Assembly (NCBI GenBank): GCA_002011735.1
Contig: MTOQ01000011.1
Span: forward strand, 2,761 to 66,760
Reading direction: 5' to 3'
Source: Nitrospirae bacterium JdFR-81
GTDB taxonomy: Bacteria; Nitrospirota; Thermodesulfovibrionia; UBA6902
Length of the DNA stretch: 64,000 nucleotides
The translations under genes and the position numbers were made by a program. Under the pieces are notes generated by a model, which searched no databases, was not told the DNA's origin, and saw only the letters and a program-made list of their open reading frames with translations. This document shows, piece by piece, positions 1 through 6,100 of this stretch; position 1 is the stretch's first letter; the number at the start of each line of letters is the position of its first letter.

Positions 1-466
1 TTGGACCATCAGAGCTTTTATTATTTAAAAATTGGCTATTTTCAATAACTATGTCACCCTCTCCCATCTCAAGATAAACCCCTCCGATTACCGTGGCATA
101 GCCCCTTTGAAAGATGATATTTCTAATTGTAATAACCTGGCCAGCGTCTCCCTCGTTATCCGAGTCAAGGTCATTATCAATAAACATTACTCGCACCGTG
201 TCTCCTCCATCAAGGATGGGTAAATTTGATGGAACCTCGGCTTGAATAGTTAAGGAGCCATCACCATCACTTGTTTCATAGGTGAGTGTGGCGGTAAGAT
301 TATAAGTTCCAGGTGCAACATTGATGACATCATCCTCACCATTTGATTGTGCAGTTGTCAGCGCGTTCTGAAACTCCACCGGATTTGAAACATTAAAGAT
401 CGCCCCCTCTGAATAGCCGGTAAAAACAAAAGCCAAACAACATAGAACAAAGAATAATCTCTTCAT
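1..466 (-). CDS. Secreted protein, N-terminal part only (gene continues past window start). Signal peptide, then Gly/Asp/Asn-rich beta-helix-like (choice-of-anchor Q-like) region
   Basis: ATG at 464-466 (reverse complement) is preceded by AAGGAGGGAT RBS. It translates MKRLFFVLCCLAFVFTGYSEGAIFNVSNPVEFQNALTTAQSNGEDDVINVAPGTYNLTATL... with a hydrophobic signal peptide. The frame is open to position 1. It is absent from the ORF track only because it runs off the window. Confidence 0.6.
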   Translation of the reverse strand, partial: MKRLFFVLCCLAFVFTGYSEGAIFNVSNPVEFQNALTTAQSNGEDDVINVAPGTYNLTATLTYETSDGDGSLTIQAEVPSNLPILDGGDTVRVMFIDNDLDSDNEGDAGQVITIRNIIFQRGYATVIGGVYLEMGEGDIVIENSQFLNNKSSDGP

Positions 467-733
467 GATATCCCTCCTTCTTCAAGGATGGATTAGCCAG
501 AATACCAATATCTTGAACTTCCTCCCCCATTTTAAATTAATTATAGTATATCGTAAGGTCAATAAGATAAGGTGAATATAACAAAGATCCCTGCGGGTTA
601 ATGGTGCAGAATGGATGAGTGTGATCTGAATCACATTAATTTTTTCATATTTTTCTTGACAATAACTCTTAAATATGATTCAATTTTAAAGGTGTAATTA
701 AATCTTTAAATCTTAAAGAGAAAGGGGAAAAGG

Positions 734-2623
734 ATGAGGAAAATAGGCTATCTTCTCATGATACTCTTACTCATATCATGTGGGAGCAACATGACCACAT
801 CCACCAACCAGGACACAGGAACGGTCAGTGCCACCGGACAGAGTGGCACGGTTGAGAGACCCCGGATCACCGTTCAGTCGATCCTCTCAAATATGGCAAG
901 GGGAGAGTATGTCAAGGGTGAGGTGCTTGTGAAGTTCAAACCTGACGCACCCTCAGGCGTTATATCCGATCTGCATCAGAGAGTTGGTGTGGCCTCAAGG
1001 AAAGTGGTTGGCACGGTGCCAAACCTTGAGCGTGTCAGGCTTCCTGAGGGCGTTTCTGTAGAGGATGCAATAATTCAATATATGTCTGATCCAAATGTCG
1101 AATATGCAGAACCAAACTATATCATTCGTACATTCACCATGCCAAATGACACATACTTCCAGCCGAATCAGTGGGCCCTGCACAACACAGGCTCCTATGC
1201 AGGTGGCACACCTGACGCTGATATAGATGCCCCGGAGGCATGGGATACAACCACAGGGAGCAGTAATATAATCATTGCCATTACTGACACGGGCGTGGAT
1301 TACAACCACCCTGACCTTGTCGGGAATATATGGATAAATGAGGATGAGGACTGTAATGAAGAGGCAGGCGCCGAGGATGACGATGACATGAATGGATATG
1401 TGAATGACTGTGTGGGATGGGACTTTACAACCTGTGAGAGATATGTCTATGACGAAGAGAATATGGAATGGATCTGTGATGAGGCCAAAGACCCGGACAG
1501 TGACCCCATGGATGAACACGGGCATGGCACACATGTAGCAGGGATCATAGGGGCAAAGGGGAACAACGCGGAGGGCATAGCAGGCGTGATGTGGAATGTG
1601 AGACTGATGGCGCTGAGCTTTCTGAATGCACAGGGCGTTGGAGACATCGAGGGTGCTGTGAATGCCATAGAGTATGCGGTATCAAACGGCGCAAGGATCA
1701 TAAATGCAAGCTGGGGGAGCTATGATTATTCCTATTCGCTATATGAAGCCATAAGCACTGCCAACAGTGCAGGGGTCCTCTTCATAGCCGCTGCTGGCAA
1801 CGAGGAGAACAACAATGATGCAGAGAGCCCATTGTATCCTGCAAGCTATAACCTGCCGAATATAATAGCCGTTGCAGCAACCGACCAGAACGACATGAGG
1901 GCACACTTCAGCAATTATGGCCTGAGTTCTGTTGATGTTGCTGCACCTGGTGTATACATATTCAGTACTGTCCCGATATGGTGGAGTGGCTATCCAGGCT
2001 ATGGAGAGGTGGAGAGGTTCTCAGGCACCTCCATGGCAGCGCCCCATGTGGCAGGCATTGCAGGACTCATCTATAGCCATTATGATGGCGTCCATAATAC
2101 CGCCTTCACCTATACACAGGTCAGGGATACGATCCTGAGATATGTGGATATCCTCCCCTCACTGCAGGGGTGGATAAAGACAGGCGGAAGGGTGAACGCC
2201 CATCTTGCTGTCGCCTCACTGCTCATACCCACAGACCTCACGGCCATAGCCCAGTCACCAACAGAGGTAACCCTCTCATGGACGGACAACGCTACCGGAG
2301 AGGACGGATACATCCTGGAAAGAAGGACCACCGACGGGAACTTCTCTGTGATCGCAGATCTACCGCCTGACACCACCACATATACTGACACAGACCTCTA
2401 CCCACTAACCACCTATATCTACAGGATAAAGGTATACAACAATATCTCTGAGTCATTCTATTCAAACGAGGTATCTGTCACAACCCCTGAGACAGAGCCA
2501 AAGAGGGGCGGAGGCGGAGGATGCTCGCTTGTGACAGGCCCATCTGATCAGCCTGTCGATATAGCAATACTCCTGATACCAGCCCTGACCATACTTATCG
2601 CGCTGCGGAGAAAGGGAAGATAA
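734..2623 (+). CDS. S8 family subtilisin-like serine peptidase. Lipoprotein-type signal, I9-like propeptide, catalytic domain with an acidic Cys-rich insert, FN3-like domain, C-terminal Gly5-Cys/TM/basic sorting tag
   Basis: Catalytic triad motifs DTGVDYNHPDL, HGTHVAG and GTSMAAPHVAG are present. The N-terminus is MRKIGYLLMILLLISCGS (lipobox). RBS AAAGGGGAAAAGG lies before the ATG. The protein ends ...KRGGGGGCSLVTGPSDQPVDIAILLIPALTILIALRRKGR. Confidence 0.9.
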   Translation: MRKIGYLLMILLLISCGSNMTTSTNQDTGTVSATGQSGTVERPRITVQSILSNMARGEYVKGEVLVKFKPDAPSGVISDLHQRVGVASRKVVGTVPNLERVRLPEGVSVEDAIIQYMSDPNVEYAEPNYIIRTFTMPNDTYFQPNQWALHNTGSYAGGTPDADIDAPEAWDTTTGSSNIIIAITDTGVDYNHPDLVGNIWINEDEDCNEEAGAEDDDDMNGYVNDCVGWDFTTCERYVYDEENMEWICDEAKDPDSDPMDEHGHGTHVAGIIGAKGNNAEGIAGVMWNVRLMALSFLNAQGVGDIEGAVNAIEYAVSNGARIINASWGSYDYSYSLYEAISTANSAGVLFIAAAGNEENNNDAESPLYPASYNLPNIIAVAATDQNDMRAHFSNYGLSSVDVAAPGVYIFSTVPIWWSGYPGYGEVERFSGTSMAAPHVAGIAGLIYSHYDGVHNTAFTYTQVRDTILRYVDILPSLQGWIKTGGRVNAHLAVASLLIPTDLTAIAQSPTEVTLSWTDNATGEDGYILERRTTDGNFSVIADLPPDTTTYTDTDLYPLTTYIYRIKVYNNISESFYSNEVSVTTPETEPKRGGGGGCSLVTGPSDQPVDIAILLIPALTILIALRRKGR

Positions 2624-2785
2624 TCGAAGCTGAAGACGGCACGGGAGAAGGCATTATATACATACGCCATCCTTCTGATCCTGGTAATCATCCACTATGC
2701 CTTCTCCCGTGGCCTTTTTAAATACCTCATCCCCCTGTTCCTCGCAGTCACCCCCTATCTGATCCAGAAAAGGGTAAATATAAGG

Positions 2786-3187
2786 GTGAATCAGAGGGAT
2801 ACCCTGATCGGCCTGCTGGTCTCGTTCATCATACTCCTACCATCTCTGGTGTATCTGATATCCCACAGCGGTGATATCACCCTGCCCTCTATGGAGGTCA
2901 TCCTCTTCCACCTCTTTATCGTCTCGATACCGGAGGAGATATACTTCAGGGGGTTTCTTCAGGAGGTCATCGGCAACAACATAAAAGGGGTCGTTATGGT
3001 GAGCGTCCTCTTCTCCATCATCCACCTGCCCAAACTCATATTTGACGGTGACTTATCCTCGGCCCTCACATTCTTCCCCTCACTCGTCATGGGCTATCTC
3101 TATATGAAGACCTCAAACATCCTCCCCTCTGTCATCTTCCACTTCACGGCAAACATCGTATTCACCATGCTCCTGCTCATCTCGTAA
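2786..3187 (+). CDS. CPBP family (CAAX protease / Abi-like) intramembrane metalloprotease. True N-terminus may lie upstream
   Basis: CPBP motifs EEIYFRG (EExxxR), FSIIHL (FxxxH) and HFTAN (HxxxN) sit in predicted TM segments. The annotated start is GTG. The same frame is open back to 2624 and encodes two further hydrophobic helices, but with no ATG/GTG/TTG. Confidence 0.7.
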   Translation: MNQRDTLIGLLVSFIILLPSLVYLISHSGDITLPSMEVILFHLFIVSIPEEIYFRGFLQEVIGNNIKGVVMVSVLFSIIHLPKLIFDGDLSSALTFFPSLVMGYLYMKTSNILPSVIFHFTANIVFTMLLLIS

Positions 3188-6100
3188 ACAGGCCCTTTAT
3201 ATCCTCCATTATCCTGTAGCCACACGGCACCAGCACAAGGGTTATCAGGGTGGCAAAGAGTACACCTGACGCAAGGGTCAGCGCCATCGGAATCAAAAAC
3301 CTTGCCTGGACACTCCTCTCCGTGATGATGGGTATGAGGCCTGCAAAGGTCGTGAGGGTTGTGAGTATAACCGGCCTGAACCTCACAGAGGTGCCCCTGA
3401 TTATCGCATCAAATGTCTCAAGGCCCTCCCTTCTCAACCTGTTTATCTCGGCAAACAGTATGAGGGAGTCATTCACCACAACACCCGACAGGCCCACCAC
3501 ACCAAAGAGGCTCATTATACTGAGGTTCATGCCCATCACCATATGACCAAAGATGGCACCTATTATCCCGAAAGGTATGGCAGACATTATCACCACAGGC
3601 TGTCCAAAGCTCCTCAGGGGTATAGCGATCAGTGTGTATATAAGGATGAGTGCTATGACAAACCCCCTCATCACATCTGCCATCGACTCCCTCTGTTCCT
3701 TGCCCTCACCTGCAATGGTATACCTGAGGCCAGGATAACGGTCTTTCAACCGTGGAAGGATGTTCTCCTCTATCTCCTTCCTCAGCTCGTTTGCATTCAT
3801 AACATTCTCATCCACCTCTGCACTCACCGTCACTATCCTCTTGCGGTCGCGTCTCGTGATGGTAACATAACTGCGAGACTTCTTTAGAACCGCAACCTCT
3901 GAGAATGGCACCTCCCTGCCGTCAGGTGTTCGGATATACATCCTCAGGAGGCTCTCAAGGTGCCTCCTCTCCTCCTCAGGATACCTCACAAGCACCTTGA
4001 CCTCATCCAGCCCCCTCTGTATCCTCAGTGCCTCAACACCATAAAAGGCCGCCCTTACCTGCTGGGCAAGCTCAGAGAGGGTTATGCCAAGGCTCCTGGC
4101 AGAGGGCCTGAGCGAAAGACGGATCTCCTCCTTACCAGGGATGTAACTGTCCTCTATATCATATACACCGGGATACCTCTTGAGCTCTGCCTTCAGATCC
4201 TCCACGGCCCTGTGCAGGGCCTCCTCATCATGCATGGTGAGGTCAAAGGAGACGGCCTTCCCTGCACTGAATAGCTCACTGTAAAAACGAACACTCTCCG
4301 CACCGTGAACCTCTCCCACCTTCTCCCTCCACATCTTTGTAACCATTGATGTGCTCAGTTCCCTGCGTTTCTCAGAACCGATCAACTGGACGATCACCTG
4401 CCCCACATGGCTCCCGCTGGGTGAGGGGCTCGTGCTACTCCGATGACCCATGGGTATCTGGGAACCGAGGATGGAGTAGGTGTATCTGATGAGTGGCTCC
4501 GAGTGATCGTTCCTCATCCTCTCAGCCTCTTTGGCTGCCTCGATGGCTGCACGCTCCACCCTCTCGATCACCCTCAGGGTCTTGCTGTATGGTGTGCCTG
4601 GTGGCATGGTCACCTCACATATCATGCGATCGCTCTCAACCTTTGGGAAGAAGGTAAACTTTATCCTTCCCCCGAACCACAGCCCCAGTGACAGGATAAG
4701 GATAGAGAGCCCTGTTGCAATGGTCAGGTATCTCCATTCAAGGGCAAGCCTGAGGCCCTTTCTGAACGGTCCCTCAACAAAACCCCTGATACAGTCTGAC
4801 ACAAACCTCTCCTTCCTGCCCTTCGTGGGAGGAACCCTTGTCCTTGCAAGATGGGCAGGTAGCACGAGCAACGCCTCGATCAGTGAGCCTGAGAGCACGG
4901 CGATCACCACTATGGGGATGTTCTTTATGACCTTTCCCATCACACCACTGCCAAGCAGTAGCGGCCAGAACGCAGCGATCGTGGTCAGCACAGAGAACAC
5001 CACGGGCACCGCAACCTCCATCGTCCCCTCCACTGCTGCACGGAATGCAGGCATGCCCTCCTCACGCTTCCTGAAGACACTCTCTCCCACCACTATCGCA
5101 TCATCCACCACTATGCCGAGCACCATGATAAAGGCAAACAGGCTTATCATGTTGATTGATACATCATAAAAGGGCAGTATGGCGAGCCCGAAGGCAAATG
5201 CTATGGGGATGCCAAGGGTGATCCAGAAGGAGAGCCTCCTGTTGAGGAATAGGCCGAGGACGAGTATTACGAGCACCATACCATAGGACATGTTCTTGAG
5301 AAGTAGCGAGAGCCTTGCCTTGAGTATCTCCGAACGATCGCCGAATGTATCGACATGGATACTTGGAGGTAGCGTTGGGCGTAATTTGGCTATATACTCC
5401 TTAACCTCTGATGCCACGGTCAGGGCATTCTCCTGCCCTATCCTGTAGACCAGTATGCCAACAGATGGAAGGCCGTTAAACCTTGAGCCCCTCTCGTGCT
5501 CCTCAAAGGTGTCCTTTATTGTGGCTATGTCCGAGAGCCTGACCTCTGCACCATCAGGCCTGCTGAGAATGACGATGTCCCTGTACTCAGATGCACGATA
5601 CCTCTTCCCCTTTGCCCTCAGCAGGATGTATCCTGCACCCTCCTTTATCTCACCACCACCAAGATCAATACTCCACCTCCTGACGGCCTGTGCAACCTCA
5701 TTAAGCGTCAGATTATACTTGCGGAGGTTCTCCTCTGGTATCTCTATAGATATCTCCGGACCGGTCACCCCGAAGAGCTCTGCCTGTGTAACATGTGGCA
5801 GTCCTGCTATATCATCCCTTATCCTCTCGGCGTATTCCTTGAGGATGTGAATCGGCGCATCACCATAAACAGCCACATTCAGCACAGGCGCCTTGAAGAC
5901 GAACTTCTTTATCACGGGCCTCTCGGCATTCTCGGGCAGTGTGGTTAAACGGTTTATCTCTGACTTTATATCATCAAACAATTTATCAACATCCCAGCCC
6001 TTTACTGCCACAACCTCTATTATGGCCACACCCTCTGATGCGTATGCATTGACCTCCTTCACCCCATCAAGCCCTGAGACGGCGTCCTCGACCTTCTTCA

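Follow-up and report, generated by a model that had tools for sequence, protein, structure and literature searches.

Genes at the locus

The window described here is the whole 64,000-nucleotide (64-kb) stretch of contig MTOQ01000011.1 from Nitrospirae bacterium JdFR-81. Its subject is a pair of adjoining genes on the forward strand, an S8 (subtilisin-family) peptidase and, directly downstream, a small CPBP intramembrane protease of the Rce1-like, myxosortase-related kind (Table 1). The open reading frame (ORF) of the protease is mechanically called from GTG 2786 to 3187, which gives 133 amino acids (aa). Comparison with relatives shows that this call is too short, that the true start is non-canonical, a feature seen family-wide, and that it probably lies at CTG 2630.

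Positions 734, 2624 and 2786 share one reading frame, so that the S8 ORF, a stretch of 54 codons and the called CPBP ORF follow each other in phase. An earlier note on this DNA had described the 54 codons as open and devoid of canonical starts, and the codon list confirms both points and the translation: positions 2624-2785 read SKLKTAREKALYTYAILLILVIIHYAFSRGLFKYLIPLFLAVTPYLIQKRVNIR, with 0 stops and 0 ATG, GTG or TTG codons. CTG 2630-2632 is the sole start of translation table 11 ahead of helix 1 in this stretch; ATC, ATA and further CTG codons fall within or past helix 1 of the extension. Given the composition, the chance of 54 stop-free codons is ~0.10 and that of lacking a canonical start ~0.07-0.10. 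Start-less leaders of at least 54 codons occur in 7 of the 80 long stop-to-stop ORFs of the window, a count that is uninformative on general CTG use. An open start-less leader is unremarkable by composition alone, and the question was therefore settled by comparison with relatives; it is conservation that makes the observation real.

Table 1. Features of the S8/CPBP locus, in window coordinates (TM, transmembrane; nt, nucleotides).
Feature	Position	Strand	Basis or remark
S8 (subtilisin-family) peptidase, 629 aa, presumed substrate	734..2623	+	Pfam PF00082 (201 bits), PF22148, PF00041
Cys-containing tripartite C-terminal sorting signal GGGGGCSLVTGPSDQPVDIAILLIPALTILIALRRKGR	2507..2620	+	Gly-rich/Cys motif, TM helix, basic cluster
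Purine-rich Shine-Dalgarno-like stretch GGAGAAAGGGAAG, in the last subtilisin codons	2607..2619	+	10-22 nt upstream of CTG 2630
S8 stop codon TAA, in frame with the CPBP ORF	2621..2623	+	Sequence; shared frame coincidental
Proposed full-length gene of the CPBP intramembrane glutamic protease (Rce1-like, myxosortase family), 185 aa + stop	2630..3187	+
CTG, proposed initiation codon of the CPBP/Mrt-like protease	2630..2632	+	Conserved CTG column
N-terminal basic tail and TM helix 1, residues 2-25 in CTG numbering KTAREKALYTYAILLILVIIHYAF	2633..2704	+	AlphaFold2 helix 2-25
TM helix 2, residues 29-45 LFKYLIPLFLAVTPYLI, two nearly invariant prolines	2714..2764	+	AlphaFold2 helix 29-45
GTG, mechanically called start of the 133-aa ORF	2786..2788	+	First canonical start; not conserved
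Catalytic EExxxR motif (EEIYFR), helix 4	2933..2950	+	Helix 88-114
RND/AcrB-type transporter, 1039 aa	3177..6296	-	Same neighbour in L161

The N-terminal extension is coding

The extended 187-aa protein, two codons longer than the 185-aa version that begins at CTG, served as the query for relatives. A set of 160 related loci was fetched from Nitrospirota/Thermodesulfovibrionia metagenome-assembled genomes (MAGs) and metagenomes, plus the closest relative, L161. The query found 114 relatives; the close ones are mostly 165-200 aa long and cover 84-96% of it. In the 160 fetched loci, tblastn matches often extend to query residues 1-10.

Alignment of the Nitrospirota/Thermodesulfovibrionia orthologues, a check proposed in the earlier note, shows that the extension is conserved as an amino-acid sequence. 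Its consensus among relatives (alignment A1) is VxxYHAFSxxxFxYLIPLFLxxxPY, the prolines P37 and P44 (187-aa numbering) are nearly invariant in the same alignment, and the KALYTY motif ahead of helix 1 is also conserved as protein. The orthologues clearly do not all start at the equivalent of GTG 2786, an outcome that the earlier note had considered: the column is mostly Phe, with some Leu or other residues (consensus RINxRF).

Codon signals agree with the protein alignment. Among 20 representative lineages, entropy at the three codon positions is 0.89/0.61/1.27 in the extension and 0.82/0.46/1.40 in the rest of the gene; the 8 codons ahead of the CTG give 1.42/1.60/1.47, which is no coding pattern. 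The onset of coding periodicity is CTG 2630. The synonymous share of differing codon pairs, counted from a MAFFT codon alignment, is 0.33 in the extension (0.37 within TM1) and 0.44 in the rest of the gene, against 0.11 and 0.07 in the shifted frames. The extension is open, with coding-type substitutions, in every lineage examined.

Fold and family of the protease

The protease matches Pfam PF02517 (Rce1-like) with 65.1 bits, above the gathering score of 22.4. Its catalytic motifs EExxxR, FxxxH and HxxxN are all present; E102, E103, R107, F128, H132 and H171 are invariant and N175 nearly so in 93 sequences (alignment A2). AlphaFold2 models the 185-aa version with a pLDDT of 95.6 and a pTM of 0.91, placing helices at residues 2-25, 29-45, 55-80 and 88-114. 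Three helices thus precede the EExxxR helix in the full-length model, and the Rce1 fold is found complete with the helices N-terminal to the EExxxR helix. Solved CPBP folds align over 176-177 of the 185 residues, both N-terminal helices included.

From conservation, codon signals and the AlphaFold2 model it follows that the two extra helices belong to the canonical fold. The extension is shown to be coding, conserved as protein and part of that fold, and the 133-aa ORF is truncated. The earlier note had suspected that this ORF is N-terminally short and that the two upstream helices belong to the protein; orthologue conservation and the predicted fold bear this out.

Scores against the NCBIfam models place the protease near the myxosortase (Mrt) proteins. 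They are 65.3 for MrtS (cutoff 130), 62.7 for Mrt_core (100), 56.4 for MrtP, 47.4 for MrtC, 45.3 for MrtJ (75) and 31.5 for MrtX (180). No curated Mrt family model (Mrt_core NF040914; MrtS, MrtJ, MrtC, MrtP, MrtX) reached its cutoff with the protease. Judged from these profile scores, the protease is related to Mrt proteins and lies outside every curated Mrt subfamily.

The start codon

The N-terminus must lie within the nine codons at 2624-2650 (TCG AAG CTG AAG ACG GCA CGG GAG AAG), because TM1 has to be included and a start inside TM1 inverts the topology. For counting, lineages were defined as clusters at 85% nucleotide identity (n=40) with a tail-bearing substrate gene upstream. A canonical start ahead of TM1 is missing in 26 of the 40. 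CTG is the only table 11 start before TM1 in 20 of the 40: 15 have it in the same column as the window, in 2 it is shifted by one codon, and in 3 it lies four codons upstream. TTG takes the window's CTG column in one of the 40. The other 20 comprise 14 with ATG, GTG or TTG, 5 with only ATH (ATC, ATT or ATA) and 1 with none. It is established that the start is non-canonical and that this is a feature of the family.

The start column itself carries a codon preference. Among the representatives with Leu at this column (n=27), 19 use CTG and 3 TTG, while CTG makes up 27% of Leu codon usage (binomial P 4e-6); the remaining conserved Leu columns have CTG in at most 11 of 25. Codons flanking the CTG vary freely, and the sole invariant island before TM1 in the DNA alignment is C/TTG. 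Cases without CTG at the start column mostly have another start nearby. L009, L016 and L093 have TTG at the very same column; in another subclade one column interchanges between ATG (L045), TTG (L051) and CTG (L038, L113); L065 has ATG two codons upstream and CTA at the start-column Leu. The closest relative, L161, has the same gene order as the window (S8, CPBP, convergent RND transporter) and reads TAA TAA GAG CTG AAG ACA, with a single open codon before the CTG. An unambiguous start before TM1 is seen in L021, where the stop is followed by ATG AAG AAA AAG GCC. AAGGA stands 5 nt upstream of the CTG in lineages with long intergenic gaps; L006, L011 and L020 have it at this spacing.

Based on these alignments, translation probably starts at CTG 2630-2632. 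Of the four mechanisms listed in the earlier note, this non-canonical start is the one favoured by the comparative data.

Several observations weigh against a CTG start. The Shine-Dalgarno (SD)-like stretch of the window has a spacing of 10-22 nt (AAGG at spacer 14), longer than optimal, and an SD before the CTG is lacking in 8 of the 20 representatives. In L004, L008, L013 and L027 the CTG is missing and the sole candidate is an ATH two codons downstream; the codon is CTC in L002 and CTA in L034 (from a 1.5x-coverage MAG), both of which lack CTG and ATH alike. For cluster 18 (L023/L028), the start could instead be a TTG or ATG that lies further upstream and overlaps the substrate gene. Because the lineages are related by descent, the codon statistics make them look more independent than they are. 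An SD-like AAGGG precedes GTG 2786, and a short isoform could be made from there. CUG initiation in E. coli runs at ~0.9% of AUG, and CUG accounts for 0.024% of annotated bacterial starts (PMC11497404).

Since L004, L008, L013 and L027 offer no near-cognate start ahead of TM1 other than ATH, the data suggest turnover between CUG and AUH starts within the family. As a separate observation, orthologues frequently carry Ile (ATC, ATT or ATA) two codons past the CTG column; the window has ACG there (2636-2638).

Two further patterns were seen around the junction. In 10 of 22 lineages (e.g. L001, L006, L020, L023, L082 and L088), a TAA or TAG lies 2-4 nt upstream of the CTG, with a single base in between (TAAnCTG); the window lacks it. 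Seven of the 10 have it as a second stop in the frame of the substrate gene; in L088 it serves as that gene's own stop, as it does, judged by the same 94-nt spacing, in L015 and L086. TAAnCTG may be left over from a 1-nt stop-start junction or act as its backup. The other pattern lies at window 2648-2665 (AAG GCA TTA TAT ACA TAC), where nucleotides are conserved beyond the need of the protein: the Lys codon is AAG in 20 of 20 lineages, and Leu is TTA in 12 of 20, while TTA makes up 9.5% of Leu codons. No conserved RNA pairing was found in this stretch; its conservation may reflect a constraint that keeps the initiation region unstructured and A/U-rich.

RNA structure was considered as well. 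RNAalifold found no conserved RNA pairs at 20 junctions, the window junction folds no better than shuffled sequences (z +0.84), and an Rfam scan of 2300-3300 gave chance matches only, far below gathering scores. No RNA element or attenuator accounts for the junction. The only tRNA in the window is a tRNA-Val.

Alternative explanations

The extension might be translated from another near-cognate codon within 2624-2650 (AAG 2627, 2633 or 2648, or ACG 2636), or by start-codon-independent reinitiation after TAA 2621-2623. The stop lies just 6 nt ahead of the CTG, a spacing at which termination-reinitiation is feasible, with sharp decay by ~20 nt (PMC10666635). AAG 2648 is the invariant Lys codon of the 20 CTG-type lineages and has purine-rich, SD-like sequence before it, and the window carries ACG where many orthologues have ATH. 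Against this, it is the C/TTG triplet that forms the invariant island ahead of TM1, the SD spacing to AAG 2648 is 0-3 nt and so too short, and orthologues with gaps of 107-177 nt keep both the CTG and a good SD, so that reinitiation is not required. Hecht et al. reportedly found in 2017 that AAG and ACG initiate far more weakly than CUG in E. coli. We consider these near-cognate and reinitiation starts unlikely. Coupling to the upstream gene, another candidate of the earlier note, is possible in the window with its stop 6 nt upstream, but as a general mechanism it fails because some orthologues keep the CTG across gaps of >100 nt. A functional start at GTG 2786 or another internal codon, giving a 133-aa protease here and leaving the 54 codons as a recently orphaned remnant, is very unlikely. 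GTG 2786 is the first canonical start, with its upstream AAGGG, and joint loss of TM1 and TM2 would keep the orientation of the remaining helices. This reading has to contend with a column that is mostly Phe and some Leu in orthologues, with an extension under coding-type substitution in all lineages, with solved CPBP folds that cover both N-terminal helices, and with the 26 of 40 lineages that have no canonical start, a number unexpected for independent decay. Starts within helix 1, from an ATC, ATA or CTG such as ATC 2669, find some support in the many database orthologues annotated from an M or V inside TM1 (e.g. MVxVYHAFS). They are nonetheless highly improbable: the internal codons have no positional conservation and are absent in the window, L002, L011, L020 and L100; one helix would be lost and the topology inverted relative to orthologues with ATG before TM1, such as L021; and the KALYTY region upstream is conserved as protein.

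The remaining explanation is that TAA 2621-2623 is a sequencing error or is read through, yielding a subtilisin-CPBP fusion. Both ORFs do lie in one frame with a single stop between them, as the earlier note had pointed out when it listed the two possibilities. The error is contradicted by the same arrangement in dozens of independent assemblies. As to readthrough, the upstream gene is in the protease frame at no more than 10 of the 31 loci with a tight junction, as chance would predict, and in another frame at the other 21; the substrate stop varies at these loci (TAA 19, TAG 8, TGA 4); L161 carries the tandem stops TAA TAA; and in several orthologues the substrate stop and the protease start lie >100 nt apart. 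The tail of the S8 protein also closes with a basic cluster typical of a complete tripartite sorting signal. Sequencing error, readthrough and fusion are rejected, and the shared frame in the window is a coincidence. A frameshift from the upstream gene was also considered and is ruled out, as frames and gaps vary among orthologues. The CTG at 2630 is left as the preferred start.

The upstream S8 peptidase and its sorting tail

The S8 protein begins with a lipobox signal peptide MRKIGYLLMILLLISCGS; the Fervidolysin-type prodomain, the S8 domain and the fn3 domain follow, and the sorting tail forms the C-terminus. The tail, GGGGGCS...RRKGR in outline, is encoded directly upstream of the protease gene. 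It contains one Cys, and no second tail of this type was found in the 64-kb window. Against JDVT-CTERM (NF033191) it scores 14.7 bits in the whole protein and 20.6 as the tail alone, with 21.4 for L083, all below the cutoff of 27. The tail lacks an Asp-Pro nine residues past the Cys: the window reads CSLVTGPSDQPVD, and the orthologue consensus is CSIGARQNTPTAxAD.

The pairing is recurrent. At 55 loci from 40 lineages the protease gene is preceded by a gene for a protein of ~550-1090 aa with such a tail, which ends in the pattern GGGCS[IV]G..QN.PTA.AD.AVLL.PLLL.A.LRRRR. In virtually every lineage the substrate gene of these operons has an ATG start, and the start anomaly is therefore specific to the protease gene and not a property of the assemblies. 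Taken together, the S8 and CPBP genes would form a dedicated myxosortase-type module of substrate and sorting protease, in which the protease is predicted to cleave the tail.

Both ends of the S8 peptidase carry a Cys signal, the lipobox LISCGS (window 734-790) and the C-terminal Cys tail (2507-2620). The protein could be lipid-anchored or processed at both ends. The N-terminus MKK..LL(A/V)SCGS and the ATG start are common to nearly all S8 orthologues (loci L001-L100).

Among the neighbours, the 3' end of the protease gene (stop 3185-3187) overlaps the 3' end of the convergent RND/AcrB-type transporter gene by 11 nt (3177-3187). On the minus strand, an ORF at window 1-467 runs off the window start, with its C-terminus beyond the window, and has a signal-peptide-like N-terminus, MKRLFFVLCCLAFVFTG.

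Proposed mechanism

In the proposed mechanism, an initiator tRNA charged with formylmethionine would start translation at CUG 2630, six bases past the subtilisin TAA, and the codon would be decoded as formylmethionine. Weak CUG initiation would keep the protease low relative to its single substrate, the S8 lipoprotein encoded directly upstream, whose Cys-containing C-terminal tail the protease is predicted to cleave. At the window's 6-nt junction, and in L083 and L161, initiation at the CTG may be assisted by ribosomes that have just finished the substrate gene.

A broader proposal is offered tentatively, as a possibility we regard with some doubt. The weak CUG start (AUH in a few lineages) might be a selected, conserved translational attenuator in this Nitrospirota sorting module that holds the protease at a small fraction of the substrate, with its synthesis in tight junctions (6 nt; 1 nt in some relatives) dependent on ribosomes that have finished the substrate gene. 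If true, a whole family would be using, and evolution maintaining, the rarest bacterial NUG start, CUG being the rarest of the four (PMC11497404).

Annotation and significance

Public annotations of this protease family are systematically truncated at the N-terminus (e.g. P0003, P0007, P0020 and P0024). The call for P0003 (143 aa) begins at a GTG in TM2, those for P0020 and P0024 begin at an ATG inside TM1, and only around a third of close orthologues in alignment A1 have a complete TM1. Most family members are annotated from an internal ATG, GTG or TTG in TM1 or TM2 because gene callers ignore CTG. The truncated entries lose one or two helices of the fold, which affects family models as well as topology and structure predictions, and gene finders that ignore CTG will repeat the truncation.

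Non-AUG initiation in bacteria is itself known. What is unusual is the conservation of CUG across a family and the systematic mis-annotation that results. A CUG start maintained over ~20 lineages beside an ATG-started substrate gene would be a clean natural system for studying how weak starts set enzyme-to-substrate ratios, with or without termination-reinitiation. The pair also extends myxosortase-type Cys-CTERM sorting to Nitrospirota/Thermodesulfovibrionia, with a tail and protease subfamily outside the curated models and a client that bears both an N-terminal lipobox and a C-terminal Cys tag.

Comparison with known systems

Tripartite tails that contain Cys have been described for the MYXO-, JDVT-, Synerg- and CGP-CTERM signals; JDVT-CTERM carries an almost invariant Asp-Pro nine residues after its single Cys, and start codons are not mentioned in that preprint (Haft, 10.1101/2023.06.07.544157).

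The resemblance of the module to JDVT-type dedicated myxosortase pairs is established. As in the window, MrtJ/JDVT-CTERM (NF033192, NF033191) joins a protein with a tripartite tail (invariant Cys, TM helix, Arg/Lys cluster) to an adjoining small Rce1-like CPBP protease, and JDVT-CTERM is the best NCBIfam match of the window tail. The differences are also clear. Window scores fall below the cutoffs for both partners (protease 45.3 vs 75, tail 14.7-20.6 vs 27), and the tail has SDQP in place of the DP motif, the family consensus being QNTPTA.AD. The host belongs to Nitrospirota, not Pseudomonadota, the substrate is an S8 lipoprotein, and the protease has no canonical start in most lineages.

MrtS/Synerg-CTERM and Mrt_core (NF040589, NF040914) are the best-scoring hidden Markov models (HMMs) for the catalytic half of the protease (65.3 and 62.7 bits). 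The MrtS profile, with 170 aa and its catalytic region at 72-161, is similar in overall size. In contrast to MrtS, the N-terminal region of the window protease is ~15 residues longer; the scores remain below 130 and 100, and the tail has no Synerg-CTERM match. MrtX/MYXO-CTERM of Myxococcus xanthus (mBio 2025, PMC11980579) likewise involves an intramembrane protease of the CPBP superfamily that processes Cys-containing C-terminal tags, and orthologue tails of the consensus type match MYXO-CTERM weakly (16.7 vs 20). MrtX serves dozens of unlinked clients as a housekeeping enzyme, whereas the window protease has one client directly upstream, and it scores 31.5 vs 180 with the MrtX HMM. Compared with Rce1 (MmRce1, PDB 4CAD) and SpdC (PDB 6U0O), the window protease has 15-16% identity, 185 vs ~250 aa and another class of substrate. 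On this profile and tail evidence, the module is best regarded as a new subfamily within an already known kind of sorting system.

Non-AUG starts in bacteria include the AUU of infC, and CUG is among the starts of translation table 11. To our knowledge, a CUG conserved over ~20 lineages of one family is undescribed for CPBP/Mrt genes. The family studied here resembles such non-AUG cases (e.g. the AUU of infC) in that a weak near-cognate start is conserved in a gene family, where it plausibly limits expression.

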